Shown: positions 7,152-43,881 of the stretch, in pieces
Layout of the letters: the number at the start of each line of letters is the position of its first letter
Position numbering within the stretch: the first letter of the stretch is position 1
Source: Candidatus Aminicenantes bacterium
GTDB lineage: Bacteria > Acidobacteriota > Aminicenantia > JAMOAD01
Direction: 5' to 3'
DNA length: 64,000 nucleotides
NCBI GenBank assembly: GCA_027061995.1
Contig: JAMOUT010000075.1
Coordinates: 92 to 64,091, forward strand
Position numbers and translations under genes: made by a program
The notes under the pieces: generated by a model
Database searches by the model: none
What the model was told of the DNA's origin: nothing
What the model saw: only the letters and a program-made list of their open reading frames with translations

Positions 7152-8018
7152 TCAATTAATTTTGTTCAGATATTCCCCGTATTCATTATTAATCTCTTTT
7201 GCGAGTCTCAAAAGTTGCTTTTTATCTATATACCCCATTTTATATGCTATCTCTTCAATACAGGCGATTTTAAACCCTTGTCTCTCCTCTATGGTCTTAA
7301 TGAAAATCGATGCATCTATCAAGGATTCATAAGTTCCCGTATCAAGCCATGCATATCCTCTTCCGAGAAGCTCCACTTTTAATTTTCCTTTTTTAAGAAA
7401 TTCCTGATTTACGGCGGTTATTTCAAGCTCTCCCCTTTTTGATGGTTTTATTTTTTTCGCTATATCAATAACACTATTATCATATATATATAAACCTGTT
7501 ACCGCATAATTGCTTTCGGGATTTTGCGGTTTTTCCTCAATACTTGTAACATTGCCGTTTTTATCAAATTTAACAACTCCGTATCTTTCGGGGTCCTTTA
7601 CAAAATATCCGAAAACCACCCCGCCACCATTTTTCTCAACATGTTTTATTCCCGCGGTTAATATATCGGGAAGTCCGTGCCCGTAAAAAATATTATCTCC
7701 GAGAATCATTGCAATGCTATCGGAGCCAATGAACTGTTCCCCAATTATAAATGCCTGAGCAAGCCCCTCGGGTTTCGGTTGCACCTGATAAGATATCTTT
7801 AATCCTATCTGTGAACCATCATTAAGAAGTTCTTTAAATTTGGGTGTATCTTCCGGTGTCGATATTATAAGTATCTCTTTAATCCCCGAAAGCATCAATA
7901 CTGAAAGAGGGTAATAAATCATGGGTTTATTATAAACCGGAAGAAGTTGTTTACTTACGACCTTTGTTATAGGGTTAAGCCTTGAACCTGTTCCTCCGGC
8001 TAAAATTATCCCTTTCAC
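7152..8018 (-). CDS. rmlA: Glucose-1-phosphate thymidylyltransferase
   Basis: [38 protein letters not shown] is a near-canonical RmlA/RfbA N-terminus. The size is 288 aa. Confidence 0.9.
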
Positions 8019-8033: not shown

Positions 8034-8768
8034 TTATAAATCCTTATAAAATCTTTTTTTAACATATTCAAACACAATATCAGCGGATTCTTCTATTGTA
8101 AGTTTTTCAGTATCAAGCAGGATTTCAGGATTTGCAGGTTCATCATAATCATCGGAAACTCCCGTAAAATTTTTTCTTTTTCCTTCAAGAGCCTCTTTGT
8201 AAACCCCTTTATCATCTCTTTTAATACATGTTTCAACGGAAGCTTTAACGAAAATTTCAATGAAATTCTTTGTCATCTCTTTAACACAATCTCGCGTCTC
8301 CTTATAGGGAGACACGAATGAAGCAACGACAGAGATTGAATTTTTTTGAAGAATCTTTATAAGAATTCCCACCCTTTTAAGATGAAGTTTTCTGCTTTCT
8401 CTGTCAAACCCGATTTCAGGAAGAAGATCTCTTATATCTTTACTATCTATTCTTTCAATGGGGATATACTCCCATTTTTTCAGTTTTTCATATACTTTAT
8501 CAGCTATTACGGTTTTCCCTGATTTGGGGAGCCCCGTAAACCATAGAACAAATGGTTCAATTTTTTTCTTTCCTATTTTGACTTTATTCCACAATCTTTC
8601 ATGAAGAAAATAAACCATTATTTTAATAACAAGTTCGATAAGTCCGGCAGCTATCGCCAGATCAAGTCTTCCGAAAAAAACAAAAATAATAATTGTTGTC
8701 GTTAAAGTGGCAAAAAATCTCCATGAAATCGCTTTTAAAAGTGATCTGAGTTTTGTTTCAATATACAT
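8034..8768 (-). CDS. cysC: Adenylylsulfate (APS) kinase with N-terminal ~70-aa two-helix membrane segment (DUF2061-like)
   Basis: A P-loop (GLPKSGKT) and the APS-kinase motif SFVSPYKETRD are present. The N-terminus MYIETKLRSLLKAISWRFFATLTTTIIIFVF... is hydrophobic. Confidence 0.75.
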   Translation of the reverse strand: MYIETKLRSLLKAISWRFFATLTTTIIIFVFFGRLDLAIAAGLIELVIKIMVYFLHERLWNKVKIGKKKIEPFVLWFTGLPKSGKTVIADKVYEKLKKWEYIPIERIDSKDIRDLLPEIGFDRESRKLHLKRVGILIKILQKNSISVVASFVSPYKETRDCVKEMTKNFIEIFVKASVETCIKRDDKGVYKEALEGKRKNFTGVSDDYDEPANPEILLDTEKLTIEESADIVFEYVKKRFYKDL

Positions 8769-8870
8769 TTATGAATTATAAATCAATGAATGAGCTTTGT
8801 AAAGATAGCCATATAAACTTCTTAATATGTATAGTAAAACAGTATTTAAATATTTTCTTTATACAAATAT

Positions 8871-10562
8871 TTAAAACTTCCTGAATTTTAAGATAGTAGC
8901 CACATATTGATTTTTATAAATCAGTTGCTTTTTAATTTTAAAATATCTTCCTTTCTTACTCTCTTTAAATAACATCCTCTTTAGTGCGACTTCTCCTGGC
9001 CTATCAATCGGATTCATATATCCGTCAAAAATTATATACTTAATTTTATATTTAATTATTTTTTTTAAAAAGAAATTCACAAGTTTATTATAATTATCAT
9101 AAATACTTTTCGTTTTAGGGATAAAATATATAATATTAACCTTTTTATTGAGATAATATCTGACGGTTGTTAAAGTGGAAAAGACGGCAATTCGGTCACC
9201 GGGTTTGATATGATTATTGTTAAGCCATTTTGCAATAACATAAGCCCCCCTATTAGGTGATAATAGATTGTATTTATACGCTTTTTTATAAGAGATTAAA
9301 TATATGTTCATAAAAAAAACAAAAAACAATATAAAAAAAATAGCTTTTTCGAAGATATGGATTCTATAATCTTTTATAAACAGATAAATGATAGGTGCGA
9401 TAAAAACAATGGAGATTAAGATAATGCTCGGAACAATAATTAATTTTACGAAACAGATATATAATACAAACAGATACAATATTATTCTTAAATAAAAAAA
9501 CGATTTTCCTTTTAACTTTTCTTTTAAGACTTTCAAACCATAAAACAATCCTACAAAACTTACGAAATAAAAGAGATAAATAAAAGATAAAAATCTTCGT
9601 ATATGGTGACTCGAAGATAAGGAAAATCTGTGAACCGTAAAAATATACCCTTTTGCAATAAAAAAGATACATTCATATAGTAAAACGGAAATGGCAAATC
9701 TTTTGTTTTTTTTATACAGATAATAAAAACCTACGGCAAATAAAATAATTAAAATAAACAGAAAACCCCAATGGATAAAAAGGGGTAATTTAGCAGGTAT
9801 AAAAAATAGAATAGCTGAATATATAATTGAAAAAAGTTGAAGCGGATTTTTAATAAAATAAAGGTATGATTTGGAATCAAAAATATATTGAATTTTTGAG
9901 ATTAATCTTGGGACTAATTTTATATAGAAAACCAGAAGTCCACCCGATATTATTAGAATAAACATAAGATATTTAACCCATATTTTTTTCTTAATCCTGA
10001 TGAAATTTACTATGTAACTAAAAAACAACAATATCCCCTCAAATCTTGTAAACACTCCCAATAAACTTGAGACAAACGAGGCGACATTTTTTTCTGTAAG
10101 AAAAAAATAAAATGATAATACAACAAAAAAAAGATAAAGAGAATCTGTCGTAGGGAACACAAAAAACTGTAAAAAAGGACTACTTAAAATAAAAATAACT
10201 CCAATAGAATAAAAATTCTCGGTGGTTTCTTTAAAAAGTTTGTATGAGAAAAATACAATCCCTACACTTGATAAAAAAGATATTAATTTTGCCCCGATAA
10301 TAAACCCATCATAATTAGAAAAGAGTAGATTAATAAAAGAACCAAGTATCCATAAAAATACGGGGAACAGAGGAGGAATAAATTTAAGTTTTAAATTGCC
10401 TGCAAATAATTTTTCAGCAGCAAAACAATATTTATAAAAATCGGGAGGAGCGAGATTTGTTATTTTAAAAAGTAATATTCCATTTAAAAAAGAGAACATT
10501 ATCAAGAAAAAAAGCGGGTTTTTTATAAGATTCAGTATCCTTTTTCTTATCTTTCCCATCAT
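8871..10562 (-). CDS. Polytopic membrane protein, GT-C-like (ArnT/PMT/oligosaccharyltransferase-like) with C-terminal soluble domain
   Basis: There are >10 predicted TM helices followed by a ~130-aa hydrophilic C-terminus. It sits in the glycan locus. The fold assignment is by architecture only. Confidence 0.4.
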   Translation of the reverse strand: MMGKIRKRILNLIKNPLFFLIMFSFLNGILLFKITNLAPPDFYKYCFAAEKLFAGNLKLKFIPPLFPVFLWILGSFINLLFSNYDGFIIGAKLISFLSSVGIVFFSYKLFKETTENFYSIGVIFILSSPFLQFFVFPTTDSLYLFFVVLSFYFFLTEKNVASFVSSLLGVFTRFEGILLFFSYIVNFIRIKKKIWVKYLMFILIISGGLLVFYIKLVPRLISKIQYIFDSKSYLYFIKNPLQLFSIIYSAILFFIPAKLPLFIHWGFLFILIILFAVGFYYLYKKNKRFAISVLLYECIFFIAKGYIFTVHRFSLSSSHHIRRFLSFIYLFYFVSFVGLFYGLKVLKEKLKGKSFFYLRIILYLFVLYICFVKLIIVPSIILISIVFIAPIIYLFIKDYRIHIFEKAIFFILFFVFFMNIYLISYKKAYKYNLLSPNRGAYVIAKWLNNNHIKPGDRIAVFSTLTTVRYYLNKKVNIIYFIPKTKSIYDNYNKLVNFFLKKIIKYKIKYIIFDGYMNPIDRPGEVALKRMLFKESKKGRYFKIKKQLIYKNQYVATILKFRKF

Positions 10563-10593: not shown

Positions 10594-11748
10594 CTATTTA
10601 TTTTCTTTCCCACCTTCAAGCAAAAAGGATAATAATGAAAAAAATAAAATTGAGAAAAAGAAAGCAGAAAAAATAATCAGTTTTTTATTTGTTTTTACCG
10701 GCCGGGCAGAAATAGTCAGGGGAGGATTAAATCTTATATCTTCATTATATACTTTTTTAAATTTTTCCACAGCCACGGATAGATCATTGTAAACTTTCTT
10801 TCCGATATCCCCTTTTAAATCAAGTTTTTTTAAAAAAAAGTCAAATTCTTTTAAAAATGTTCTATAAACATGAACAACCGTTTTCTTGTCTATTATCTTT
10901 TGTTTTAGCTCCCGAAAAAAAATAATTTTTATCTGTTCAATATCTTTATTCCTTTTATAAAAAGCCAAACTTTGTTTTAAATCGGCAATCTGAGACTCAA
11001 TCCCAACTATCTGATTTACGGGGGAAAGATACCTGTATCCCCCGTTATCCGTTGATACTAACTGAAAAGAATTCATTTTCCTTGAGTCAGGGTATTTTTT
11101 TAATATCATTAAGATATCCCCTTTCTTTTTCTCCAATAAATTTATATTAAATTTAGCATGAAATGTCTTATCATTATATTTTACGATCAAATCTTTGGAA
11201 CGATAATAATTAGAAGAAATATAATCATAAATCTTCTTATCAACAATGGATTCTCGAATAAAAGATCCAAGTAATTTGACAATTTCACCTGTTTTTTCAG
11301 GATTTTTGCATCTGTGTGAGATTTTTACCCCTATTATAAAATTTACTGTTTCATCCTTTATTTTACCAAAATTCTTTATATCTTCTTTTGTATATGCATA
11401 AATAGGCTTTATTGCTTTGCTCGGATTCACCTTTTTCATTCCGTCTATAATAAGACGGAGTTTATTTTTATCTTTCACATTATTGGATAAGAACCGATAA
11501 AAATTATCACGATCAGTGAATATCAAAGAATAATCCTTATAATCAATTAATGAAATTTTTTTACCTTTAGTTGAGAATCTCAAAATACCGTTGCATTTGT
11601 AATATTTAGGTAACATAAAAACAATAACAACGGACAAGAAAGTAATAATAAAAACACCCGATAAAATAAACAACTTTCTTTTCCATAAAATTCTAAACAA
11701 GTCAAATAAATCAATCTCATCATTAATATTTGTTTTTTCATTATTCAT
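10594..11748 (-). CDS. Wzz-like polysaccharide chain-length determinant / co-polymerase
   Basis: The N-terminus IDLFDLFRILWKRKLFILSGVFIITFL...PKYY matches the Wzz motif. A second TM lies at the extreme C-terminus. Confidence 0.55.
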   Translation of the reverse strand: MNNEKTNINDEIDLFDLFRILWKRKLFILSGVFIITFLSVVIVFMLPKYYKCNGILRFSTKGKKISLIDYKDYSLIFTDRDNFYRFLSNNVKDKNKLRLIIDGMKKVNPSKAIKPIYAYTKEDIKNFGKIKDETVNFIIGVKISHRCKNPEKTGEIVKLLGSFIRESIVDKKIYDYISSNYYRSKDLIVKYNDKTFHAKFNINLLEKKKGDILMILKKYPDSRKMNSFQLVSTDNGGYRYLSPVNQIVGIESQIADLKQSLAFYKRNKDIEQIKIIFFRELKQKIIDKKTVVHVYRTFLKEFDFFLKKLDLKGDIGKKVYNDLSVAVEKFKKVYNEDIRFNPPLTISARPVKTNKKLIIFSAFFFSILFFSLLSFLLEGGKENK

Positions 11749-11773: not shown

Positions 11774-12835
11774 TTAAAATTTTACATAATCTTTATAAGT
11801 CAATTTTATACCGGTTTCCAATGAGGTTTTTGCTTTCCAACCCAAATTATTTATCTTGGAAACATCAAGGAGTTTTCTCGGTGTTCCATCCGGTTTTGAG
11901 CTATCCCAATCAAGCTTTCCGTCAAACTCTACGATAGTTTTTACAATTTCGGCGAGTTTTTTTATTGTAATATCTTCCCCTGTTCCTATATTAATAAGCT
12001 CTCCTATATCATTATAATCGTATTTTTTCATAAGAAAAACAACTGCTTCCGCCAAATCATCAACAAATAAAAATTCCCTCTTCGGGGAACCGGTTCCCCA
12101 TAATTTAACAAAAACTTGCCCGTCATCTCCTTTTAAAATCCCGAATTTTTCAAGAAATTTCTTAATCTCCCCATCATTACCGGATAAAGGGAATTCTTTC
12201 ATCGGTCTCTTTTTAAAATCTTCTCTTATCTCCGAGAATTTGTCTTCGGATAATAATTTTGCAAGATGGAATTTCCTTATTAAGGCAGGCAAAACATGGG
12301 AGTTAAACAAATCATAATTATCGTTCCGACCATATAAGTTAGTGGGTTGAACAGCAAGATAATCCGTTCCATACTGCTCATTATAGTATCTGCACATCTT
12401 AATCCCCGCTATTTTTGCAAGAGCATAAGCTTCGTTTGTAGGTTCGAGAGGAGAGGTTAAAAGGGACTCCTCTTTCATAGGTTGAGGTGCAAGTCTCGGA
12501 TATATGCAAGAGCTTCCGAGAAAAAGAAGTTTTCGGACTCCGAACTTATATGCGGAATGAATTATATTTACCTGAATCAGAAGATTATTATAGATAAATT
12601 CGGCGGGATATGTTTTGTTTGACATAATCCCTCCCACTTTCGCAGCAGCAAGAAAAACATAATCGGGTTTTTCTTTTTCAAAAAAATCCTCAACGACTTT
12701 TTGTCTTTCCAAATCAAGTTCTGTATGGGTTTTAAGAATCAGGTTTTTGTAACCTTTTTTATTTAACTCTCTGACAATAGCTGAACCTACAAGCCCCTTA
12801 TGTCCTGCCACATAGATTTTATCCTCTTTTTTCAT
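11774..12835 (-). CDS. fcl: GDP-L-fucose synthase (GDP-4-keto-6-deoxymannose 3,5-epimerase/4-reductase)
   Basis: [19 protein letters not shown]...[32 protein letters not shown]...[31 protein letters not shown] is a close match to Fcl/GMER. Confidence 0.8.
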
Positions 12836-12856: not shown

Positions 12857-14140
12857 CTATAAAAAATATCCCTCTAACTCTTTTCCCACATCATGTATAA
12901 AAGGATGTCCTTCAAGAGCAAATCCATATGAATCAAGAAGAAGAGCGTTATCCTGTGAATGCATCCCTTCAAAAATAGATTCGGAATATTTTTCTTTTTT
13001 GGTAATTCCCGCTTTTAAATCAAACCCGTAGTTTGACAAAAGAACAATGTCGGGAGCTTTATCAAAGTATTTACCTTTGTAAATCTCCTCTTTGAAAAAA
13101 ACCTCTTTTATCACTTGCTTATTTTCTATTTCCAAACTTAAAAATCTCTTTTTTATCTCTTCTCTTATTTTATCATAATTTTTTTTCTTCACTTTTCCTT
13201 TTCCGTATTTACCTTCAAGATGTATGTATATTCTTGAAGGATCAAGAGCAAAAACAGTGGAATTTTCATCTATGCTCTTAAGATTTTTCGGATTTTCATC
13301 ATTAAATTTCAGATACCCCCACTCCTTGAGATATTGAGAAAGGTAAACCTCATATTTTAAAGAGGTGAAACCATGATCGGATAAGATTATAAAGGGAATC
13401 CCTTTTTTATCCATCTCATCGGTAATTTCACCTATTATTTCATCAACTTTTTTATAATACCCTATAAAATCATTATGGTTCGGATGGTTCAAATCATCTT
13501 TTGCCTTAAATAAAAAATGGTGAAGTCTGTCTGTTCCCGTTATGATAAAATAAAAAAGATTCCATTTTTCTTTTATCAGTTTTTTATACAATAAATATCT
13601 TTTATCAAGTGTCTCGTGAAGTTCTTTCATAAAATATTTTTTATCCTTTTTCCCCAAAGCTGTGTCAACATCAACCTTATAATCAATCTCTTTAAGATAT
13701 GATAAAAAATTCTTAGGATATACCGCGTTTTCCAAATCAAGAGCAACAAAACCGGAGATAAGATAACCGTTAATTTTTCTGACAGGATAAGTATTGGGAA
13801 GGTTTATTACAATGGATTTTTTTCCTTTTTTTTCTATCTTTTCCCACATTGTTTTAACAGGTAAAAGGGGAAAAGTGGGAAATCTATAACCGTAATTTTT
13901 ATTATTTATCTCCATGAATCCGTATATACCGTGTTCACCCGGATTCATTCCTGTCATAAAAGATGTCCATGAAACAGAGGAAATTTCGGGAACAGGAACC
14001 TGTGTTTTAATAAATTTGTATTTTTCAATCAATCTTTTAAAATTCGGCATTATCCCTTTTTCCGCAAATTCCTTAACAAGTTCAAAAGGAACACCGTCAA
14101 TCCCTATAATCATAAATTTTCTTGTTTTTTTAAAAAGCAT
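12857..14140 (-). CDS. Alkaline-phosphatase-superfamily enzyme (type I phosphodiesterase / nucleotide pyrophosphatase-like)
   Basis: MIIGIDGVPFEL...PVPEISSVSWTSFMTGMNPGEHGI is the PF01663-like metal-site region. The start is chosen at the internal Met preceded by GAGGGAA. The ORF track extends to 14167, so an alternative start at 14110 is possible. Confidence 0.5.
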   Translation of the reverse strand: MLFKKTRKFMIIGIDGVPFELVKEFAEKGIMPNFKRLIEKYKFIKTQVPVPEISSVSWTSFMTGMNPGEHGIYGFMEINNKNYGYRFPTFPLLPVKTMWEKIEKKGKKSIVINLPNTYPVRKINGYLISGFVALDLENAVYPKNFLSYLKEIDYKVDVDTALGKKDKKYFMKELHETLDKRYLLYKKLIKEKWNLFYFIITGTDRLHHFLFKAKDDLNHPNHNDFIGYYKKVDEIIGEITDEMDKKGIPFIILSDHGFTSLKYEVYLSQYLKEWGYLKFNDENPKNLKSIDENSTVFALDPSRIYIHLEGKYGKGKVKKKNYDKIREEIKKRFLSLEIENKQVIKEVFFKEEIYKGKYFDKAPDIVLLSNYGFDLKAGITKKEKYSESIFEGMHSQDNALLLDSYGFALEGHPFIHDVGKELEGYFL

Positions 14141-15113: not shown

Positions 15114-15745
15114 TTTAATATCTCTCTTAATACTATGAAGAACTGATTAAAATGCCTCCATGCAATCCCACGAGGTTTTTCAACCGGAATCTCTTTAATA
15201 TTAATCTCTTTTATTCTTGCCCTTTTTTTATAAAAAAATAAAACAAAAACTCCGCATGTGCATCCCCCTTTTAATTCTTCAATACCGTTCGCGAATGATT
15301 TTCTAAATGCTCTAAAGCCTGTCCCAGCATCATAAACACCTGTTTTAAGCCTTGTGATAAAAGAGATAATTCTTTCCGATATTCTGGGAATCTTTCTTCT
15401 TCTGCCGAGAACAAGGTCAGCTTTATCGTCGATAATCGGTTTTACAAGTTCTGAAATTCTGTTAGCAGGATGCTCGCCGTCAGCATCAATTGTTACTATA
15501 ATATCAGAATCTATTAAATTTATCCCTTTTATTATGTTTTTAAGATATCCTAAATTTCTCGAATTTTTTATAACCTTCGCCCCTTTTTCTTCCGATATTT
15601 GAGAAGTATTATCTTTACTTGCATCATCTATTACAACAACTTCATCAACATGTTTTTTTACATCATCTATAACTTTACCTATTCTTTTCTCTTCATTATA
15701 AGCGGGGATAAGCGCTGTAACTTTATACCTGTTATTTATTCCCAT
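15110..15745 (-). CDS. Family 2 glycosyltransferase (DPM1-like, polyprenyl-phosphate sugar synthase type)
   Basis: VTALIPAYNEE...VVVIDDASKDNT...TIDADGEHP are GT2 DxD-type motifs. It is a short 211-aa form. Confidence 0.7.
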   Translation of the reverse strand: MGINNRYKVTALIPAYNEEKRIGKVIDDVKKHVDEVVVIDDASKDNTSQISEEKGAKVIKNSRNLGYLKNIIKGINLIDSDIIVTIDADGEHPANRISELVKPIIDDKADLVLGRRRKIPRISERIISFITRLKTGVYDAGTGFRAFRKSFANGIEELKGGCTCGVFVLFFYKKRARIKEINIKEIPVEKPRGIAWRHFNQFFIVLREILK

Positions 15746-16079: not shown

Positions 16080-16095
16080 CTTATATATCCTTAAA

Positions 16096-17562
16096 TTAAA
16101 ATTTATCTATTATCTCAATGACTTTTGATTCTCTCTTCTCCCCCGACCAATGAGTTTTAGGAAGAATGACATGTTTTTTCTCCTCAATCCTTGCTTTAAT
16201 ATGAGGTTTTGTCAAAAGTTTAAACATTCTGTATATCTCCTCTTCAAGTTTAACATTGGGTTTAAAACCGAATTTATCGGGAAGATTTTTATATATGGCT
16301 TCATAAGGGTGTTCGTCAGCTTCGACTCTCGGATTTTCAAGTCTCTGAATCTTGGGAGCTAATCCGAATTCCTCTTTTCCGATTTTCGCCACGGTTGTAG
16401 CAAGTTCATACAGGGAATAAACCCCGGATAATTGGTTTACAACATCATAAACTCCCGGTGCCGGTGGATTATTTATAAGCCTTGTCATACATTGCATAGC
16501 ATCAGACAGAGCAAGAAACCCTCTCTTCTGATGTCCCGAACCATACAGAGTTAGGGGAATATCCACAATCGCTTGAGCAACGAACCTGTTTATAACTGTT
16601 CCAAACCATTCATCAACATCAAACCTTGTCCTTAAATCATCATCCTCTTCAAAAGCGGGAATATGAACTCCGTAGATAACTCCTTGCATTATGTCATAAG
16701 ATCTGAGCCACCAGTATTTACAAGCTTCGTAAACATTAAAAGTATCCTGCACTTTAGAAACATGGTAAAAACTAACGGGATCTCTCGGGGTTAATTCTCC
16801 TCCGAGACTCCACTCTCTATCTCCCCATTTTAAAACAGCGTCAGCGGGGAAAAGCCCCTCGAAAATAGGTCTTCCCGTAAGAGGAGTCCCGTATTCTCCC
16901 ATTGTTCCCAACTTTATTAAAGGGGTATTCGGAACAATATCCTTTATGGCGAAAAGGAGTCTTAGCGTTCCCATAACATTGTTGGTTTGAACAAAAACAG
17001 CATGCTCATCATCCACCATACTGTAAGGCGCAGACGGGTTTTCAGCATAATGAACTATCACATCGGGTTTTACCTCTTCAAGAAACTCCCTTAATCTGTT
17101 TCTATCCAAAAGATTTATCTCTCTGAAATTTATATTAATCCCGAGAACCTCTTTTGCTTTTCTTAATCTTTGTGTCATTCTTGCTATGGGAACTATTGTA
17201 TGAGAGCCTTTTTCCTTAACCCAATTTCTCCTGCTGTAATTATCTATTCCGCTTATCTCATAACCCAAACCACCGAGCCAAAGAGCAAGAGACCACCCGA
17301 GATAGCCGTCTATACCGAGTATCATAACTTTCATCTTTTTTAATTTATATCCGTATTCAGATTTTTCCCACTCGGGACATTCCTCAAAATTTACTGAAGA
17401 CGGGTCAAAAAAACCGAGGTCAGGTCTCCTTTTACACGAGCCCATATTAAACCCCTCTTCCACCTCACCGGCACTCTGTCCGCAAGCTCTGAAATCAACA
17501 CCGCCTTTAAATTCAAACATCGGACAATTCCAACATGTGTTATCAGCATTATGTTCATTCAT
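16096..17562 (-). CDS. sqdB: UDP-sulfoquinovose synthase-like enzyme (SQD1/SqdB/Agl3 family) with ~75-aa Cys-rich N-terminal extension
   Basis: MILGIDGYLGWSLALWL...IDNYSRR...TIVPIARMTQRL...VVHYAENPSAPYSM and FYHVSKVQD parallel the SQD1 motifs (GGDGYCGW, IDNLxRR, TPIASI, VVHFGEQRSAPYSM, YHLSKVHD). The extension carries C10, C13, C27, C43 and C62. Confidence 0.65.
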   Translation of the reverse strand: MNEHNADNTCWNCPMFEFKGGVDFRACGQSAGEVEEGFNMGSCKRRPDLGFFDPSSVNFEECPEWEKSEYGYKLKKMKVMILGIDGYLGWSLALWLGGLGYEISGIDNYSRRNWVKEKGSHTIVPIARMTQRLRKAKEVLGININFREINLLDRNRLREFLEEVKPDVIVHYAENPSAPYSMVDDEHAVFVQTNNVMGTLRLLFAIKDIVPNTPLIKLGTMGEYGTPLTGRPIFEGLFPADAVLKWGDREWSLGGELTPRDPVSFYHVSKVQDTFNVYEACKYWWLRSYDIMQGVIYGVHIPAFEEDDDLRTRFDVDEWFGTVINRFVAQAIVDIPLTLYGSGHQKRGFLALSDAMQCMTRLINNPPAPGVYDVVNQLSGVYSLYELATTVAKIGKEEFGLAPKIQRLENPRVEADEHPYEAIYKNLPDKFGFKPNVKLEEEIYRMFKLLTKPHIKARIEEKKHVILPKTHWSGEKRESKVIEIIDKF

Positions 17563-17654: not shown

Positions 17655-19013
17655 CTATCTTCCATTAAAATTTAGGACTGTTTTTATTGTTTTAATTAAA
17701 ATAATCAAATCAAAAATAAAACTCATATTTTTTATATAGTATAATTCATACTTAAATTTTTCCATTTGTTGTTCTACGGTATTGATATATCCCATTTTTA
17801 CCTGCGACCAACCGGTAAGTCCGGGCTTGATAAAAAATCTCAAATCATAGAAAGGGATTTTCTCTTTCAGCATATCTGCAAAATATTTTCTTATCGGTCT
17901 ATTCCCGATTAAACTCATATCTCCCTTTAGGACATTAATTAATTGAGGTAATTCATCAAGCCTTGAAAATCTAAGAAATTTTCCTATTTTTGTTATTCTC
18001 GGATCATTTTTCCCGGACCATTTAGGTCCTGTTTCCTTTTCAGCATCAATAATCATAGTTCTGAATTTTATTAATTTAAAAGGTTTTTTATACCATCCCA
18101 ACCTCTCTTGTATAAAAAATACGGGTCCCCTTGAAGTAAGCTTAATTAAAAGGGGGATTATAAGAAAAACAGGAGATGAAAAAGCCAAGATTAATAGAGA
18201 TATTATAATATCAAACAATCTTTTAAGTTTATAATAAGAGGAGATATTAATAAGATAATTTTTTTCATAAACAATATGCCAAACATTCTCAAAGCTTATA
18301 TCAAAAATTTTCCCTGATAAACTCATATAAAAATTATCAAAATCATATATAAAAAATCCTTTGAATTTCAGTTCTATTATCTCTTCCATTTTATATTTTA
18401 TCTCTTTATTTTCGAGAGAGATAACAATGATATCATCTTTTCTGAAATTGCTTTCTATTTGTTCCACAAAACTCTTTATTTTATCATCGGTAACAAACTC
18501 AAACATAAAAAGAGGATTATTTTCAAATTCATTAATAATTATCTTTTGCAGCTTTTTCGAAAACCCTAAAAAAAACACCCTTTGTTTATTAATCTTTCTT
18601 TCAAATTTTGAGTAGAAAAAAAATCTTTGCAGTATAAGAAGGAGAAAATAAAAAGGAAAAATTAAAATAAATACCAATCTTCCGATAAAATAATACGGGA
18701 TAAAATAAAATATAAAACCAATAAAAATTGATACGAATACCAAAGAAAAGAAGATTTTAACAATATTCTTACTAAAATTACCAATCTCCCATCTTTCGTA
18801 AACTCCGAAAATATAAAAAGACAAAATTACCAAGGGAGATAAAATAAGATAAACGAGTAATATTTTTCTTAGAAGAACGCAAGAAAACACACTGCTATCA
18901 TACAAAGTTCTCGCAAAATAAGACAATATAATAGCCAATAAAAGAATTATTTGGTCCAAAAGGAGTAATTTAACCCTTACCTTGTTAAAAATATATGAAA
19001 AATAATCCTTCAT
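17655..19013 (-). CDS. Polyprenyl-phosphate hexose-1-phosphate transferase (WbaP/ExoY 'bacterial sugar transferase' family), initiating enzyme
   Basis: The C-terminal domain FDIIISLLILAFSSPVFLIIPLLIKLTSRGPVFFIQERLG...FKLIKFRTM...DELPQLINVLKGDMSLIGNRP is canonical PF02397. N-terminal TM helices are present. Confidence 0.85.
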   Translation of the reverse strand: MKDYFSYIFNKVRVKLLLLDQIILLLAIILSYFARTLYDSSVFSCVLLRKILLVYLILSPLVILSFYIFGVYERWEIGNFSKNIVKIFFSLVFVSIFIGFIFYFIPYYFIGRLVFILIFPFYFLLLILQRFFFYSKFERKINKQRVFFLGFSKKLQKIIINEFENNPLFMFEFVTDDKIKSFVEQIESNFRKDDIIVISLENKEIKYKMEEIIELKFKGFFIYDFDNFYMSLSGKIFDISFENVWHIVYEKNYLINISSYYKLKRLFDIIISLLILAFSSPVFLIIPLLIKLTSRGPVFFIQERLGWYKKPFKLIKFRTMIIDAEKETGPKWSGKNDPRITKIGKFLRFSRLDELPQLINVLKGDMSLIGNRPIRKYFADMLKEKIPFYDLRFFIKPGLTGWSQVKMGYINTVEQQMEKFKYELYYIKNMSFIFDLIILIKTIKTVLNFNGR

Positions 19014-20224: not shown

Positions 20225-20239
20225 TTCTAATTTGTCTCC

Positions 20240-21418: not shown

Positions 21419-22543
21419 CTATTCTATGGAAACAACCGTTTGTTTTTTAAAAATAATATCGTAAATTTTTTCATATTTTCTTACCATCTTATCAATAGAA
21501 AACCGTTTTGATATTTTTCTTCGTGCATTTTTCCCAATCAAAATTCTTTTTTGCTTATCTTCCAATAAATTAATTATTTTCTTTGAAAAAGTATTATGAT
21601 CATTTATATCTACGAGAATACCATCAATATCATTTTCTATTAATTCTCTGTTAGCGGGGATGTCGGTTGTAATTACAGGTAATGAATAAGCCATAGCTTC
21701 GGAAACAGCGTTTGAAAATCCTTCTGAAAAAGTATGTAACACGAAAATATCGGACATTCTATATAAAGGTTCAATTGCTTTAACATTTCCCGGAAACTTT
21801 ATAAAATTTTCCAGACCTTTAGATTTAACAAAAGCCTCAACATTCTTTTTCAAAGGGCCGTCACCGGCAATAAAAAGATATATTTCCCTTTTTTCAAGTA
21901 TTTTACTGATTATCTTTACTAATACCTGATGTCCTTTTAACTCATCAAAACGACCGACACTTAGAATAATTGGGATTCCATCTTTTAAAAAATACTTTTT
22001 TAATGTTTCTTTTGGGGGAGAATAATGATTATTATTAACTTCCGGTACTCCATTGTAAACTATTCCTATTTTTCCTCTTTCTATTTTTAAGAAATCAACA
22101 CAATTGTTTTTAATTGCCTTTGAATTTACTACAACAAAATCAGCAACCCTGTGAGAAAACAAATCACAAATAGTCCATTTATTAAAATAACTAAAATGTT
22201 CTCCTCGCTGAGATGTTATTAATGAAATTTTTTTCCCCATGAACAACTTAATCATGCCCCCAAAAAAATTAGCTGTTGGTAATATAGTATGAACAATATC
22301 TATTTTTTTATCCTCAATAATTTTTTTTATTTGCCAAAATGATCCTATTATATTTTTGTAGTTTTTCACTCTAACAATATTTACCGAATCTTTTACTTCC
22401 TCGACAAAACTATTTTCATTGGTAAGCAGAATCAGATTTGGGGAAAAGGTGTTTTTATCAAGATTGTTTAACAAATATACAAGCTGTCGTTCAGATCCGC
22501 CTGTTTTTAAGGAGGGAATCATTAAGAGTAAATTAATTTTCAT
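21419..22543 (-). CDS. Family 4 glycosyltransferase
   Basis: KTGGSERQLVYLLNNL is at the N-terminus, followed by a C-terminal GT4 domain FSEGFSNAVSEAMAYSLPVITTD. Confidence 0.8.
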   Translation of the reverse strand: MKINLLLMIPSLKTGGSERQLVYLLNNLDKNTFSPNLILLTNENSFVEEVKDSVNIVRVKNYKNIIGSFWQIKKIIEDKKIDIVHTILPTANFFGGMIKLFMGKKISLITSQRGEHFSYFNKWTICDLFSHRVADFVVVNSKAIKNNCVDFLKIERGKIGIVYNGVPEVNNNHYSPPKETLKKYFLKDGIPIILSVGRFDELKGHQVLVKIISKILEKREIYLFIAGDGPLKKNVEAFVKSKGLENFIKFPGNVKAIEPLYRMSDIFVLHTFSEGFSNAVSEAMAYSLPVITTDIPANRELIENDIDGILVDINDHNTFSKKIINLLEDKQKRILIGKNARRKISKRFSIDKMVRKYEKIYDIIFKKQTVVSIE

Positions 22544-23909
22544 TGGATGAGAGATAAATGATTATCTGAAAAACAAAAACAAAGATTAGAAAAGGGAGTA
22601 AAAAAAAGGTTAACATTGAAATAGCACTTGCAAAATTTCTTGAAACAGAGAAAAAAATTAGTGTAACTATCAAAAGACTATAACCTATAAACTTAATCCT
22701 ACTTACCCTTAGCATTTTACAATACAAAATCTTTAATAATACTCCAAATAAAATAAATTCGAGAAAAAACAAGTTTTCTCCGAAATTCAATATAGAAGTT
22801 CCCAGCAAACTTGCATTATAAGTTATTCCAAATTCCTTATTTTTCGGAAAAAAATACTCATTGTAAAATTTTACAATACTAAAATTCGGCTTATTTTTCC
22901 AAATAAATTTTGGAACGAAGATTAAAACAGAGTGAAGATAGTTTCTCCCGTAGAAACGAATATCTAACGGATGGGTTAAGATAACAACATATTGCTCAGT
23001 GCTATAAAACATTTTTGTAATAATTCCTCTTAATTTTATGTCCATGCTTTTTTCATATTCTTTTTTTATATAATAGGATCTGAACACATGAAAAAGGAAA
23101 AATAACAAAAAAATAAAAAAGGATAAAAACATAATTTTCCTAAGTCTTATTTTCTTTATCTTATAATGGTAAATCATTAAAATCACTAAAATCGGTACGA
23201 ACACATGCCCTCTACTTCCCTCGAAAAGATACACTATCAAAAAAAAGCCAGTTAGAACGATTGTTAAAAAAGTAATTTTCTTATTTTTCAAATATGAAAA
23301 ATAGAAAAACATTATCATTCCAATAGGAGAAAAAAAACTCATCAAGAACAAAAATCCATGTCCACTAATGAAAAAAGTTCTTCTACCTAGATGGGTGAAA
23401 AAATAAATGGGATCAGACTTAATAATAAGAAAAAAAGAAAGAAAACCTGACAAAACAAATAGAATGGATAATATCTGACCATATAGATACCATCTGGTAG
23501 GAAGTTCGGGGGGTAACTTCTTTGAAACATCCCGCGAACTTTTTATCAAATATCCCATGTAAAAAGATAAAACAGCTATATTTATAAAAAAAAACATTTT
23601 AATTGCAAATGTAGTATTAAAAATATCTTTTGAAATATTTAGTGTGGGACCGTAAATAGTAATAAAGATAGGATGTATTAAATAAAAAAGCTGAAAAAGA
23701 AAAAGAAACAAAATGAAAGGGGAAAAGATATCGGTTAATCTGTTTTTCAAGAGTGTTAAAGGAATAATCCATTGAAAAAAAACACTTTCCGTAATTAAGA
23801 AATAAAGAAATATTGGAGATTTTTCTGAAAAAGTGAAAAATAAAAAATTTATAGAAACCATTATTAAATAATAAAAAACAAGATTAATCTTTTGTTTCTC
23901 TATCTTCAT
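22533..23909 (-). CDS. Polytopic membrane protein, candidate O-antigen/oligosaccharide repeat-unit polymerase (Wzy-like)
   Basis: There are ~10-12 TM helices with one larger loop. The start is chosen at the Met after GGAGGA (23909); the ORF track extends to 23957. The call rests on position within a Wzx/Wzy-type locus. Confidence 0.45.
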   Translation of the reverse strand: MKIEKQKINLVFYYLIMVSINFLFFTFSEKSPIFLYFLITESVFFQWIIPLTLLKNRLTDIFSPFILFLFLFQLFYLIHPIFITIYGPTLNISKDIFNTTFAIKMFFFINIAVLSFYMGYLIKSSRDVSKKLPPELPTRWYLYGQILSILFVLSGFLSFFLIIKSDPIYFFTHLGRRTFFISGHGFLFLMSFFSPIGMIMFFYFSYLKNKKITFLTIVLTGFFLIVYLFEGSRGHVFVPILVILMIYHYKIKKIRLRKIMFLSFFIFLLFFLFHVFRSYYIKKEYEKSMDIKLRGIITKMFYSTEQYVVILTHPLDIRFYGRNYLHSVLIFVPKFIWKNKPNFSIVKFYNEYFFPKNKEFGITYNASLLGTSILNFGENLFFLEFILFGVLLKILYCKMLRVSRIKFIGYSLLIVTLIFFSVSRNFASAISMLTFFLLPFLIFVFVFQIIIYLSSNEN

Positions 23910-25801
23910 AATAAAGAAATTTCCTCCGCCCATTTTAAAAACACATAAATAGTCCAAAGCTCAACACTAAAATTCTCTTTTTTATTGGAAAGGATGTTTT
24001 TAAGTTCCTTTTCGTTAAAAAAAATACTGGTTTTTTGGGGAAAGTTATTTAGATAGTGCACAATTTCATCTCGGACAAAGTTTTTCACCCATTTTTTTAA
24101 AGGAATACCAAATCCTTTCTTAGGTAAAGAAAATAATTCCTCTGGAATCTTATCTTTAAATGTTTCTTTTAATATCCACTTTGAAATGTTTCCCTTTAAT
24201 TTATATTCGGTAGGTATTTTCAAAGCAAATTCCACTATTCTATGGTCAAGGATAGGGACCCTAACTTCCAATGAATTTAACATACTCATCCTATCTACTT
24301 TTGTAAGTATGTCATTGACCATATAATTTTTTAAATCATGACACATATTCCATTGAGGAAGAGAAAACTCTTTCGTTAGATTTAGTTGCCCTGTGAAAAT
24401 AGAGGGGGAATAATTCTCTTCTATTTCTCTTTTAAATCCTTTACTATACAGAGATTTCTTTATTATTTTAGTCACCTGAAACATATGAGATATTATTTGC
24501 TCATCTCCCCTGGACGATAAAATTTCACAAAACTTGTATAATCTTCTTTTCTTTTTCGTAAAGTGAGAAACAAATTTCATAGTAGGACATAAAATTATCT
24601 TTTCTGATAAAAACCTTAAAGCATAAGGAATTTTTAAGTATTTTTCAAAATACTTTGAAAACATGTAAGGCCTTACATAACCCCCGAAATTTTCGTCTCC
24701 TCCGTCTCCGGAAAGCGAAACAGTAACTTTTTCTCGGGCATATTTTGAGACAAGATATGTAGGAATCATAGAATGGTCTGCAAACGGCTCATCCATCTGG
24801 TAAATTAGTTCCGGTATTATATCCCTAAAATTATCAAAAGATAAAATTTCTTCCGTATGCTCCGTTCCATACTTTTCCGCGGTCAATCTAGCATACTCTC
24901 TTTCATCTTTCTCCCCCTCAAAACCAATTGTAAAAGTTTTTACTGGTTTTGACGAAAGCTCAGCCATAGTGGCAACAACTATTGTTGAATCTATCCCACC
25001 GGAAAGAAAAGCACCCAGCGGCACATCGGAAATCATCCTTTTTTTTACCGAATCTTTCATCAATCCTCTCAAGATTTCTTTAATTTCGTTTATGTCTGTA
25101 ATTTTATCCCTACATGAACAATCTATCTCCCAGTATTTTATTTTTTTTATCGCCCCTGTTTTTAAATCATACCTAAGGTAATGGCCAGGTTCAAGTTTAT
25201 AGGAGTTTTTAAAAACTGTTGAGGGGTAAGGAATATATCCTAGAGAAAAGTAATCATTCAAACTTACAAAATCAATCTCTTTATCAAAATTTTGTAACTT
25301 GAAGAGGGCTTTAAGCTCAGAGGAAAAAGCCAATTGGCCCCCTTTATAAAAATAGAAAACAGGCTTTATACCTATTCTGTCTCTTATAAGGTATAGGATT
25401 CTATTTTTTAAATCAAGCAATCCAATAGCAAACATCCCATTAAGTTTGTTTACAAAATCAATTCCCCATTCTCTGTAAGCTTTCAGAATAACTTCGGTAT
25501 CCGATTTGGTTTTAAAAGAATATCCACCCTTTATAAGCTTTTCCCTAATCTCAAGGAAATTATATATTTCTCCATTAAAAACAATTACAAGATCATCTTC
25601 ATCTGACATAGGTTGATTTGCAGTGTCTGACAAATCAATAATGCTCAATCGCCTGTGTCCCAAACCTACCCATTTACCAGATGCTTGCGCTACAAAACTA
25701 CCTTCAGCATCCGGTCCTCGGTGTTTTATCTCTCCCGCCATTACAAGAAGCTCTTTTTTTTCTATCTTGTTAATGGAAATAACCCCACAAATCCCGCACA
25801 T
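23906..25801 (-). CDS. asnB: Asparagine synthase (glutamine-hydrolysing) homologue, probable sugar amidotransferase
   Basis: MCGICG is the N-terminal nucleophile. The SGGIDS PP-loop motif is present. The size is 631 aa. Confidence 0.85.
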   Translation of the reverse strand: MCGICGVISINKIEKKELLVMAGEIKHRGPDAEGSFVAQASGKWVGLGHRRLSIIDLSDTANQPMSDEDDLVIVFNGEIYNFLEIREKLIKGGYSFKTKSDTEVILKAYREWGIDFVNKLNGMFAIGLLDLKNRILYLIRDRIGIKPVFYFYKGGQLAFSSELKALFKLQNFDKEIDFVSLNDYFSLGYIPYPSTVFKNSYKLEPGHYLRYDLKTGAIKKIKYWEIDCSCRDKITDINEIKEILRGLMKDSVKKRMISDVPLGAFLSGGIDSTIVVATMAELSSKPVKTFTIGFEGEKDEREYARLTAEKYGTEHTEEILSFDNFRDIIPELIYQMDEPFADHSMIPTYLVSKYAREKVTVSLSGDGGDENFGGYVRPYMFSKYFEKYLKIPYALRFLSEKIILCPTMKFVSHFTKKKRRLYKFCEILSSRGDEQIISHMFQVTKIIKKSLYSKGFKREIEENYSPSIFTGQLNLTKEFSLPQWNMCHDLKNYMVNDILTKVDRMSMLNSLEVRVPILDHRIVEFALKIPTEYKLKGNISKWILKETFKDKIPEELFSLPKKGFGIPLKKWVKNFVRDEIVHYLNNFPQKTSIFFNEKELKNILSNKKENFSVELWTIYVFLKWAEEISLL

Positions 25802-28352: not shown

Positions 28353-29858
28353 TTAACTACCTCCGAATATTCTACCTTTTATTGCATGAAACACAAATTG
28401 ATCCTCTTTTGGTAATTTAAATATGATTAAAAACAAAAAATACAAAGCAAGTTCTATGAAAATAGCGGTAACCAAAAAAAAGAAAGGAGCTTTTAGCAAA
28501 TAAATAAAATTTTTAAAAATAACAATAAATGCCAATGGAAAAATTAAGGACAATATTGGTTTTAAGTATTCTCTATCTAAAGGAAATATCCCAACAACAC
28601 TCTTGATATAAAACATCTTAATAAAATTAAAACCAATCAAACTAACCCCTGTGGATATACAAGCCCCAACTATTCCGTACTTGGGAATAAGTAAATAATT
28701 CAAAACTATATTGATTAAAACCATTGGTACCGAAAATAATAATTCTTTTTCTCTTTTCCCCAACATAATAAGCACATTTCCGACAGAGCCGGAAAATGAT
28801 AAAATTAACCAAATAATTGAAAAAATTATCAAGATAACCATACCTTGTCTATATTCCTTCTTAAAAACGCCCAAGATAATATCACTGTTTACGATAAAAA
28901 ACACGGAAAAAGGAAGAGTTAAGGTAAAAATCCATCTTGATACGATTTTGAACAACTTGTCTGCTTCTACGAATTCCTTTTTTACAAACAAGGAAGACAG
29001 AACAGGCGAGAAAATAGAATTAAATGAAAACCAAAATAAAAACAGTAAATAGCTAATTCTATAAACAAAAGAATAGATCCCCACTGATTTTGAAGTTTTA
29101 AAATAACCGAGCATAATAATATCTGTTTTATTTAAAATCATCACTGTAAAATACAAAAGAAGTATTGGAAAAGAGAACTTCAGTAACTCTTTTCCATCCC
29201 CTTTAACTTTTTTTAAGAAGACTTTAATGTTTAGCCTATAATTTAAAAGATAGAAACCGATGAAAACTGAAATCAAAGTAGAAAAAAGAAAAGCATAAAC
29301 AGCTGAATATAATCCAAACCCCAAATAATAAAGAAAAAGAAAAAGACCTAATGAAGATATTGGCTGAAGAATATCCTTTAAAAAAGCTGAATATTTCAAT
29401 TCCTTAAAACCTCTGAAAAAGGAGACTATCATGATTAACATTGCTTGAAAGACTAATACCAAGGAAAACAACCTTAGCAAACCAACCAAATCTTTATTCT
29501 TAAAAATATAGATGGAGACCTCTCTTGATGAAAAAAACATTAGCATCGCAAAAATTAAACTTAAGAAAAAAACAAAGAAGATCGAGAATCTTATTACCCA
29601 TTCTGTTTTTTCCAAATCCTTTTTCTCCATATATTCAGATATATATTTCACCGCTGTCATATTAAGACCGAAAATAGATAATACCGTTAAAACATTAACA
29701 ATGCTTAGCCCGAGACTATAGAGCCCGTATGATGCAGCTCCCAACAAATTTGCAATTAACAAATGATACAATGTCCTAAAAAAAGTTCCACCGAGCTGTC
29801 CTCCAAAACTTATCCCAGCATTCTTAACAATTAATTTAAGATTATCTTTCATATACAA
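28353..29858 (-). CDS. wzx: Wzx-type oligosaccharide flippase (MOP/PST family)
   Basis: It is 501 aa with ~12-14 TM helices. The N-terminal region is typical of the polysaccharide biosynthesis protein family. Confidence 0.7.
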   Translation of the reverse strand: MYMKDNLKLIVKNAGISFGGQLGGTFFRTLYHLLIANLLGAASYGLYSLGLSIVNVLTVLSIFGLNMTAVKYISEYMEKKDLEKTEWVIRFSIFFVFFLSLIFAMLMFFSSREVSIYIFKNKDLVGLLRLFSLVLVFQAMLIMIVSFFRGFKELKYSAFLKDILQPISSLGLFLFLYYLGFGLYSAVYAFLFSTLISVFIGFYLLNYRLNIKVFLKKVKGDGKELLKFSFPILLLYFTVMILNKTDIIMLGYFKTSKSVGIYSFVYRISYLLFLFWFSFNSIFSPVLSSLFVKKEFVEADKLFKIVSRWIFTLTLPFSVFFIVNSDIILGVFKKEYRQGMVILIIFSIIWLILSFSGSVGNVLIMLGKREKELLFSVPMVLINIVLNYLLIPKYGIVGACISTGVSLIGFNFIKMFYIKSVVGIFPLDREYLKPILSLIFPLAFIVIFKNFIYLLKAPFFFLVTAIFIELALYFLFLIIFKLPKEDQFVFHAIKGRIFGGS

Positions 29859-33793: not shown

Positions 33794-33828
33794 TTGAAAA
33801 CCTCCTTTAGTTTTTAATAAATAGTATA

Positions 33829-43869: not shown

Positions 43870-43881
43870 TTTAAATAACCC

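Follow-up and report, generated by a model that had tools for sequence, protein, structure and literature searches.

A predicted GT-C class A glycosyltransferase at the edge of a Wzx/Wzy-type glycan locus in Candidatus Aminicenantes

The 563-residue protein encoded at one end of a glycan locus in the window (the whole stretch of 64,000 nucleotides that was analysed) is a membrane enzyme of the ArnT/PMT/STT3 fold class. Our best explanation, which is held tentatively, is that it is a predicted periplasm-facing GT-C class A (GT-C_A) transferase, taking part in the extracytoplasmic glycosylation of the sulfated O-antigen-like polysaccharide that the locus itself would make by a Wzx/Wzy pathway. 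[quoted passage not shown] The former part stands, whereas the latter gained no support.

Fold class and conserved residues

The open reading frame is backed as a gene by ten full-length homologues of 30–56% identity, and the homologues at E<1e-30 amount to 37 cluster representatives. According to a hydropathy scan and to the secondary structure of the AF2 model, about 13 TM helices lie in residues 16–426, followed by an alpha/beta domain of about 130 residues, in agreement with the earlier description of more than ten TM helices and a soluble C-terminal domain in 563 residues. Lysine and arginine account for 18 of 54 positions in the loops assigned as cytoplasmic, as compared to 18 of 117 in those assigned as external, which fits an N-in, C-out topology.

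Structure comparison showed that the polytopic membrane core resembles solved GT-C_A enzymes, and the GT-C-like nature proposed earlier was thereby borne out; the best full-length Foldseek match was ArnT, at 13% identity. The protein has the long first extracytoplasmic loop after TM1, with a conserved acidic residue, that is typical of GT-C class A. The loop covers residues 33–62 and holds a helix at 40–53 in the AF2 secondary structure. Asp41 aligns with Asp47 of AfAglB through a profile of distant relatives, and is, judging from the alignments, a candidate catalytic or acceptor-activating residue. R173 shows no variation in alignment A3, where E175 and G176 reach at least 90% conservation; the motif they belong to matches the LTRyEG of PMT_2-like relatives. 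T139-D140 are also invariant. R322 aligns with a conserved arginine of the distant relatives, itself aligned to Arg426 of AfAglB, and the R322-R323 site may thus hold a lipid-phosphate-binding arginine. The position aligned to the VMSWWDYG of STT3B reads IAVFSTLTTVRYYL and lacks the WWDYG motif, and in the distant clade it reads VILxY(S/T)D. No MIR, TPR or WWDYG acceptor-recognition feature was found in the protein, nor the luminal MIR domain and loop 1 Asp-Glu motif of the PMT (GT39) enzymes.

A Pfam search with the protein gave no family at E<=1, PMT_2 included, and its homologues carry no precomputed Pfam families. No NCBIfam model matched above its curated cut-off; the best was NF046093 (AZOBR_p60025 family cell surface glycopolymer formation protein), at 28.6 bits (E 7e-7) over residues 68–202 only, below the cut-off of 150 bits. 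A literature search found nothing under the locus tag AZOBR_p60025, and a search with its prefix gave only an unrelated genome paper. PDB sequence searches with the protein, a 10-sequence profile and a 39-sequence profile returned chance matches only, and AglB, STT3B and ALG12 were reached only by the profile of the distant relatives. These relatives are PMT_2, PMT and PIG-V proteins (PMT_2 in 33 of 56), and profile-profile comparison matched the family to them over the full length with a probability of 100%. At the level of sequence, the tie to the ArnT/PMT_2 family is only indirect, through these relatives.

It had been suggested as an alternative that the protein is an O-antigen ligase or a polymerase accessory. 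A WaaL/PglL-type ligase was rejected by fold and domain content: there was no match to Wzy_C (PF04932), and WaaL (7tpg) gave a Foldseek E of 2.1 and a TM score of 0.17. The identity of a Wzy polymerase is disfavoured, since another gene meets TIGR04370; the protein itself has no TIGR04370 or Wzy Pfam match. What is kept of that alternative, a role as terminal ligase or as a second polymerase, is weighed below.

The glycan locus and the neighbourhoods of relatives

The locus covers about 25 kb (7152–32430) with every gene on the minus strand, and the transferase gene lies at its edge, as had been noted before. It is a locus of the Wzx/Wzy type, with a WbaP-like initiator, Wzx, a TIGR04370 Wzy, Wzz, a UDP-sulfoquinovose-synthase-like cassette and a DPMS/ArnC-like GT2 (Table 1).

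Table 1. Coordinates of the transferase gene, its conserved sites and the surrounding features of the window
Feature	Position	Strand	Remarks
GT-C class A glycosyltransferase, 563 aa, unclassified family	8871..10562	-	ATG start
TM domain of the transferase	residues 1-434 (9261-10562)	-
C-terminal periplasmic alpha/beta domain of the transferase	residues 435-563 (8874-9260)	-
Asp41 codon, motif APPDFYKY, start of first external loop	10440..10442	-	Invariant in alignment A1 and in the 39-sequence alignment A3
R173-F-E175-G176 codons, motif TRFEG, second family-wide conserved motif	10035..10046	-
R322-R323 codons, external loop before TM10	9594..9599	-	Invariant in A1
Wzz-type chain-length determinant, PCP-1, two TM helices	10594..11748	-	Pfam Wzz 38.2 bits
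Cassette SQD1-thioredoxin-GT2-epimerase-AP-superfamily enzyme	12857-17562	-	SQD1-like gene first
GT2 of DPMS/ArnC type, 211 aa	15110..15745	-	DPMS-like fold
UDP-sulfoquinovose synthase (SQD1/Agl3)-like enzyme	16096..17562	-	NF041015 432 bits (below equivalog cut-off of 575), E 1.8e-129, full length
WbaP/WcaJ-like initiating phosphoglycosyltransferase (PGT; Und-PP-sugar)	17655..19013	-	Pfam Bac_transf 219.5 bits
Wzy repeat-unit polymerase, polytopic	22533..23957	-	TIGR04370 55.7 bits, cut-off 40
Wzx-type MOP flippase, sole flippase candidate of the locus	28353..29858	-	Pfam Polysacc_synt 97.4 bits
Promoter-like site ahead of first glycan gene, TTGTCA-17-TATAAT with TG extension	32531-32559	-	Consensus scan
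Terminator after last Kre9_KNH gene, 14-bp stem, A and T runs on both sides	32603-32634	-	Consensus scan
Array of seven Kre9_KNH genes	32654-47317	same as glycan locus	Beyond the glycan locus

The Wzz gene also matches the NCBIfam Wzz(fepE)/WzzB N-terminal models; it lies 31 bp upstream of the transferase gene, and the two are probably co-transcribed. The WbaP/WcaJ-like gene matches TIGR03025 above cut-off (333 bits), and the TIGR04370 match implies that the role of polymerase is already taken by a gene other than the transferase. The GT2 is a candidate polyprenyl-phosphate sugar synthase and would supply a lipid-linked donor. No dedicated small flippase (GtrA/SMR type) or GacJ/DUF2304-type activator was found in the locus, nor is there intergenic room for one. 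Rfam and tRNA scans across the window gave no matches.

Members of the family sit in glycan loci, where a flippase, a PGT, a Wzy_C protein and sugar-nucleotide genes are their usual partners. A syntenic locus was found on the MAG contig JAMOVU010000107.1, of an Aminicenantes-like lineage. The gene adjoins Wzz in two syntenic genomes, that of the window and L002, with the gene order swapped in L002; no Wzz adjoins the family member in the other family loci. Between these two genomes the transferase is 48% identical, Wzz 33% and the cytoplasmic enzymes 67–92%, and this divergence of the transferase and Wzz is a pattern that would be expected for outward-facing, glycan-specific components.

The SQD1 cassette is conserved in L002, L029, L031 and L033, and is linked to the transferase family in three close-clade loci (the window, L002 and L029). 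In the visible stretches, L029 is missing the GT2 and L031 has no GT-C gene. The fourth cassette-bearing locus, L033, has a different PMT_2 GT-C nearby; hhalign showed no similarity, and it was rejected as a member of the family. The conservation of the whole cassette, with its AP-superfamily enzyme, suggests that bacterial surface glycans may contain sugars of the sulfoquinovose type.

The clade at 30% identity has a fixed operon of GT-C, MOP flippase, WbaP-type PGT and then a Wzy_C protein, and the flippase gene overlaps in all 12 of the loci with enough downstream DNA. A GT2 was never found nearby; the PGT is there instead and would yield a pyrophosphate-linked sugar. Neither phmmer nor a custom HMM found the cognate flippase of this clade in the window. 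The operon is compact and widely conserved, and together with the SQD1 cassette it is more interesting than the transferase gene itself.

Role of the transferase and its acceptor

The extracytoplasmic glycosylation would take place in three steps. In the cytoplasm, the DPMS/ArnC-like GT2 would load a sugar onto undecaprenyl phosphate, and as its gene lies inside the SQD1-thioredoxin-GT2-epimerase cassette, a 6-sulfo-hexose (sulfoquinovose or a derivative) is suggested as the donor. A MOP-type flippase would then move the lipid-linked sugar across the membrane, and the transferase would pass it to the flipped or polymerised Und-PP-linked glycan by means of Asp41, with R173 and R322 holding the lipid phosphate and the C-terminal soluble domain helping to bind the acceptor. 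The donor, the acceptor and the flippase serving the step are those that we infer. A GT-C and a DPMS/ArnC-like GT2 are the two hallmarks of glycosylation systems of the multi-component extracytoplasmic kind, and the locus has a candidate for each. Such systems have been described (PMC11127046, PMC8035078), and so have the GacI/J/K/L and WpsA/B/G/J systems (PMC10821137); some of them use MOP/MATE-type flippases. It also counts for this explanation that polymerisation and initiation are already taken care of by the TIGR04370 Wzy and the WbaP-like PGT. Against it count the lack of a dedicated small flippase or GacJ/DUF2304-type activator in the locus, and a linkage of GT2 to GT-C that is not universal, as seen in L029, L031 and the 30%-identity clade.

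It is possible, but doubtful, that the protein is a terminal transferase, a functional WaaL/PglL analogue on an ArnT/STT3-type fold, which would move the Wzx-flipped and Wzy/Wzz-polymerised glycan from Und-PP to lipid A-core, another glycopolymer or a protein. Among GT-C_A enzymes the use of pyrophosphate-linked donors is, to our knowledge, established only for the N-oligosaccharyltransferases; here, IAVFSTLTTVRYYL stands in place of their WWDYG. Furthermore, the clade of the window is only about 31% identical to the PGT-linked clade and has no cognate flippase, and the DPMS-like GT2 of the locus would be left without a role. That GT2 would have one in an ArnT-like modification, making an Und-P-sugar that the transferase attaches to lipid A, on a phosphate, or to a sugar of the core. 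This is improbable: the gene is found beside Wzz in an O-antigen-type operon and not among genes for lipid A, the family is also represented in a MAG labelled Clostridia, ArnA, ArnB or ArnD-type chemistry is missing from the locus, and PMT_2 is not matched even at E<=1. The Wzz adjacency, kept in two genomes despite the swapped order, could be explained by an alternative polymerase that works with the Wzz-like protein on a second Und-P-linked chain. There is a precedent in lactococci, where the GT-C WpsH and the chain-length regulator WpsI are a proposed polymerase pair (PMC10821137). However, the locus already has its TIGR04370 Wzy, the other family loci have no Wzz beside the gene and nothing points to a further set of repeat-unit glycosyltransferases, which makes this reading slightly less probable still.

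A protein acceptor had been proposed as well, the transferase being a dedicated O-oligosaccharyltransferase for the adjacent Kre9_KNH/CARDB secreted proteins, which would receive the sulfated glycan of the locus. The GT-C_A class does include protein glycosyltransferases (PMT and STT3/AglB/PglB), with TfpW and the Pgf system of S. mutans as further examples; in the latter, GT2, epimerase and GT-C genes lie beside the gene of the adhesin substrate. It is also correct, as described before, that the glycan locus and the Kre9-like array are contiguous, with one bidirectional terminator between them, and both lie on the same strand. However, the consensus scans predict a strong terminator followed by a separate extended -10 promoter-like site, scoring 11/12, and these elements divide the array from the glycan locus. 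Some 22 kb lie between the array and the transferase gene, which stands at the opposite end of its locus. No Kre9-like gene was found by tblastn and phmmer in about 20 independent homologue loci, with flanks of at most 10 kb; for the single syntenic genome this is a weak test. The Kre9 proteins of the window have compact Ig-like repeats and no Ser/Thr-rich linker regions, and the transferase is devoid of the acceptor-recognition features named above. For such a dedicated system the outcome is mostly negative, and we regard it as very improbable.

If the extracytoplasmic glycosylation of the locus's own polysaccharide is correct, it would add a periplasmic step to the assembly of surface polysaccharides in lineages without cultivated members, for example Aminicenantes, Acidobacteriota and Clostridia MAGs, carried out by a previously unclassified GT-C family with no direct Pfam match and no NCBIfam match above curated cut-off; this would be a further family of lipid-donor-dependent GT-C enzymes, as GT136 was. 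A wider reading, which is rather unlikely even with its two versions taken together, is that the protein founds a new GT-C_A family transferring unusual lipid-linked donors outside the membrane. In the clade of the window, the SQD1/Agl3-like synthase would make a 6-sulfo-hexose and the DPMS-like GT2 would load it onto undecaprenyl phosphate. We know of no earlier extracytoplasmic sulfosugar transfer, or of a bacterial surface polysaccharide pathway built around sulfoquinovose, and this version would be the first of both. In the other version, for the 30%-identity clade, the WbaP-type phosphoglycosyltransferase would be the charging enzyme of a 'three-component' system, which would represent a GT-C_A outside the oligosaccharyltransferases that uses an Und-PP-monosaccharide donor alongside a Wzy_C protein.

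Comparison with known systems

The Wzy_C ligases and O-oligosaccharyltransferases WaaL, PglL and WsaB (GT-C class B) possibly act at the same step as the transferase, on the outer face after Wzx and Wzy, but they belong to a different fold class; the transferase has no Wzy_C, and family members of the distant clade have the gene of a separate Wzy_C protein beside them. The eukaryotic Dol-P-Man-dependent mannosyltransferases ALG12/ALG9/ALG3 and PIG-M/PIG-V, from another domain of life, are about 11% identical and lack the C-terminal soluble domain. STT3, AglB and PglB (GT66) have the 13 TM helices, the C-terminal globular domain and the conserved arginine (R375 in PglB, R426 in AfAglB) in common with the transferase, but not the WWDYG.

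ArnT (GT83, Und-P-L-Ara4N:lipid A transferase) has 13 TM helices, N-in, and a C-terminal periplasmic alpha/beta domain, as the transferase does; the distant relatives carry PMT_2, and the donor would likewise come from an ArnC-like GT2. The differences are the 13% identity, the missing PMT_2 match, and an O-antigen-type operon in place of the arn operon. The lactococcal WpsJ and WpsH, proposed to ligate or polymerise an Und-P-linked pellicle polysaccharide, assignments that are themselves models (PMC10821137), are alike by gene context, being GT-C proteins whose genes are accompanied by those of a Wzx-type flippase, a GacI-like GT2 and a chain-length regulator.

The remaining ones are multi-component systems of extracytoplasmic glycosylation, with GT-C proteins such as the GtrC type of Shigella and Salmonella, GacL of S. 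pyogenes, ORF12/GT136 of Citrobacter and the mycobacterial Rv3779 with PpgS. The transferase differs from these in having no detectable sequence membership in any of their families, no dedicated small flippase or GacJ-type activator in its locus, and a distant clade that charges via a PGT (Und-PP-sugar) and not via a GT2. It is like them in its GT-C fold with an invariant Asp after TM1, and in the MOP/MATE-type flippases of its relatives; its gene also lies in a surface-glycan locus, where a GT2 resembling DPMS/ArnC/PpgS is the candidate charging enzyme.

The GT-C fold of the 563-aa membrane protein

The open reading frame of the 563-aa protein starts with ATG and its codon positions were checked. 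That the gene is real is clear from its homologues. A search of 5.8 billion clusters gave ten full-length ones with 30–56% identity, and an exhaustive profile search retrieved 478 cluster representatives at E<1e-3, of which 37 were below 1e-30. From hydropathy and an AlphaFold2 model (pLDDT 83.3, pTM 0.83), residues 16–426 form about 13 TM helices, and a C-terminal α/β domain of about 130 residues comes after them, much as the first-pass annotation had described it (more than 10 TM helices and a soluble C-terminal domain). Lys and Arg make up 18/54 in the loops assigned as cytoplasmic versus 18/117 in the external ones, in keeping with the N-in, C-out topology that ArnT and PglB have.

Pfam gave no match to the protein, even at E≤1, and NCBIfam a single weak and partial one, NF046093, the 'AZOBR_p60025 family cell surface glycopolymer formation protein' (28.6 bits, cut-off 150). 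PDB sequence searches with the protein and its family profiles gave nothing. The structure comparison was decisive: the best Foldseek match was ArnT (E 7e-6, probability 1.00), with STT3 and ALG9 next, whereas WaaL (7tpg) reached only E 2.1, probability 0.08 and TM 0.17, which places the modelled fold in GT-C class A. The enzyme had earlier been likened to ArnT and PMT as well as to PglL and WsaB; the first half of that comparison holds, the second does not. PglL and WsaB are Wzy_C proteins, and the 563-aa protein lacks a Wzy_C/WaaL/PglL/WsaB-type fold. The class A and B nomenclature follows PMC11127046 and PMC10920833.

The sequence evidence agrees with this assignment. The distant matches of the family profile were mainly PMT_2 (33/56), with PMT (8/56) and PIG-V-type proteins (7/56), and a profile-profile comparison aligned the family with these relatives from end to end, C-terminal domain included (probability 100%, E 9e-40). 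A sequence search of the PDB with the profile of the distant relatives found AfAglB, STT3B, ALG12 and GPI-MT1. Through the relatives' alignments Asp41 (in APPDFYKY, where external loop 1 begins) is aligned with AfAglB Asp47, and Arg322 with AfAglB Arg426, so the conserved Asp/Arg positions correspond in alignment to catalytic/phosphate-binding residues of AglB. All 39 family members compared have D41 and R173, and almost all have E175 and G176 (TRFEG). The type of enzyme is well known and the type of locus ordinary, but this member is new and unclassified.

The glycan locus and its putative sulfoquinovose cassette

Every gene of the glycan locus (7152-32430) is on the minus strand, and by gene content the locus is a Wzx/Wzy-type pathway; the 64-kb window has neither a Wzy_C/WaaL nor a Wza gene, and tRNA and Rfam scans across it gave no match. 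Instead of being catabolic sulfatases, the two alkaline-phosphatase (AP)-superfamily proteins of the locus could transfer phospho or sulfo groups or act in trimming.

Features of the window
Feature	Position	Strand	Remark
HPPK–Mut7-C RNase fusion	3951-4883	+	folate biosynthesis; single 310-aa ORF
RmlA	7152-8018	-	
APS kinase fused to DUF2061	8034-8768	-	two-helix membrane domain, at N-terminus
Strong promoter-like site	8775-8803		11/12; between APS kinase-DUF2061 and GT-C genes
GT-C protein	8871-10562	-	563 aa
Wzz	10594-11748	-	adjoins GT-C gene
GDP-fucose-synthase-like SDR (Fcl)	11774-12835	-	
SQD1 cassette	12857-17562	-	next five rows
AP-superfamily protein	12857-14167	-	Phosphodiest-like
SDR epimerase	14130-15113	-	
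211-aa GT2	15110-15745	-	
Thioredoxin	15732-16079	-	
UDP-sulfoquinovose synthase-like protein (SQD1)	16096-17562	-	432 bits, E 1.8e-129
WbaP/WcaJ-like PGT	17655-19013	-	
Three GT4 genes	19010-22543	-	
Polytopic protein, TIGR04370	22533-23957	-	'oligosaccharide repeat unit polymerase'; 55.7 bits, cut-off 40
AsnB-like amidotransferase	23906-25801	-	
Two methyltransferase-like genes	25821-27472	-	
Sulfotransferase	27475-28350	-	
Wzx	28353-29858	-	
AP-superfamily protein	29862-31355	-	sulfatase-like
SDR epimerase	31399-32430	-	
Extended -10 promoter match	32531-32559		11/12
Terminator	32603-32634		14-bp stem
Kre9 array	32654-47317	-	seven genes
Stretch in Kre9 array	39460-40858		~1.4 kb, no ORF ≥120 aa
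Kre9-like remnant	40198-40269		24 aa, the only one in this stretch
Rnf cluster	52955-58334	+	ion-translocating ferredoxin:NAD+ oxidoreductase; RnfC, RnfD identified

Since GT-C enzymes need a lipid-linked donor, the 211-aa GT2 was looked at more closely. In NCBIfam it scores best against AglJ, PpgS, Dol-P-hexose transferase and ArnC, in each case under the curated cut-off, which makes it a plausible candidate for a polyprenyl-phosphate sugar synthase. This DPMS-like GT2 belongs to a conserved cassette together with the thioredoxin, the epimerase, the Phosphodiest-like protein and the SQD1-like SDR, 488 aa long with a Cys-rich N-terminal extension of 76 aa. The cassette recurs in five or more distinct glycan loci, among them those of the window, L002, L029, L031 and L033. 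In L031 and L033 it stands apart from the GT-C family described here: L031 has no visible GT-C, and L033 has a different PMT_2 GT-C with a GT2 and a DUF2304 gene nearby. The chemistry of UDP-sulfoquinovose synthase has been described (PMC4388408), and the cassette points to sugars of the sulfoquinovose type in the surface polysaccharides of bacteria.

Gene neighbourhoods of the relatives

The neighbourhoods of about 20 independent loci were read, and they fall into a close clade (39–56% identity) and a clade with about 30% identity. In the close clade, to which L002, L029, L010 and L005 belong, L002 (same as L011), from an Aminicenantes MAG, is syntenic with the window, with the order of the GT-C gene and wzz swapped. 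The cytoplasmic enzymes of the two loci are 67–92% identical (SQD1 92, Fcl 81, AP enzyme 80, GT2 78, PGT 69), whereas the GT-C protein is 48% and Wzz 33% identical, as is usual for components that face outward and are glycan-specific. Directly after the GT-C gene of L029 come SQD1 (87%), thioredoxin and epimerase, and the glycan locus around the L010 gene has two sulfotransferases, Wzx and a PGT. The GT-C gene of L005 (56% identity) stands alone right behind the dcw/ftsZ cluster, with a 39-aa Fcl remnant upstream (L005 positions 9870-9986), which suggests that a piece of a glycan locus was relocated.

In the ~30%-identity clade the gene after the GT-C gene, overlapping with it, encodes a MOP-family flippase in 12/12 loci with enough DNA; then comes a WbaP-type PGT in 8/10 (TIGR03022, 404.9 bits, cut-off 403) and after that a Wzy_C protein of 640–665 aa in 5/7. 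The complete four-gene operon (L004, L014, L018, L020, L030) was seen in Clostridia, Aminicenantes and Acidobacteriota MAGs, and three loci (L015, L016, L026) have it without the Wzy_C gene. Housekeeping genes with no relation to the module lie on either side of it, and the four-gene operon looks like a self-contained glycan pathway.

The Kre9 proteins and the possible role of the GT-C protein

The seven proteins of the Kre9 array have signal peptides and 15 copies of the Kre9_KNH domain, some with CARDB too. Three of them are 79–87% identical over the N-terminal ~200 aa and differ in their C-terminal halves, some of which have CARDB. The two Kre9 genes checked have strong terminators of their own. 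The terminator that ends the last array gene, and the promoter-like site between it and the first glycan gene, make the array and the glycan locus look like separate transcription units. The GT-C gene is at the far end of its locus, 22 kb from the array, and none of the seven proteins had a match in the homologue loci (tblastn, phmmer), where the flanks were ≤10 kb and the comparison is weak for the single syntenic genome. The Kre9 proteins are compact Ig-like repeats with 13–16% Ser+Thr, and they lack mucin-like linkers. Nothing positive in these data thus ties the GT-C protein to the Kre9 proteins, and the first-pass proposal, an O-oligosaccharyltransferase that glycosylates this adjacent family, appears very improbable.

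A terminal ligase- or OTase-like transferase of an Und-PP-linked glycan is the main rival and would agree with the PGT-flippase-GT-C operons of the ~30%-identity clade and with the lack of WaaL in the window, but the WWDYG motif is missing from the protein and the locus has a DPMS-like GT2, and we consider this role rather unlikely. An ArnT-like modifier of lipid A would be more doubtful still, and an alternative polymerase working with Wzz slightly more so.

The protein has the GT-C_A fold and an outward-facing C-terminal domain, it is encoded beside Wzz in a Wzx/Wzy operon that includes the DPMS-like GT2, and its family is coupled to a MOP flippase throughout. Our preferred reading, a tentative one, is that it catalyses the transfer in an extracytoplasmic glycosylation step with several components. 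The acceptor would be the glycan of the locus itself, flipped or already polymerised, and the sugar added to it would be Und-P-carried, possibly the 6-sulfo-sugar from the SQD1 cassette. What stands out is the unclassified GT-C family, its conserved four-gene module and the sulfoquinovose cassette, which suggests an unusual bacterial sulfoglycan. The proposed step would be similar in kind to the multi-component extracytoplasmic glycosylation of the Gtr systems, GacI/J/K/L, Citrobacter ORF12-15 and the lactococcal Wps proteins (PMC11127046, PMC8035078, PMC10821137).
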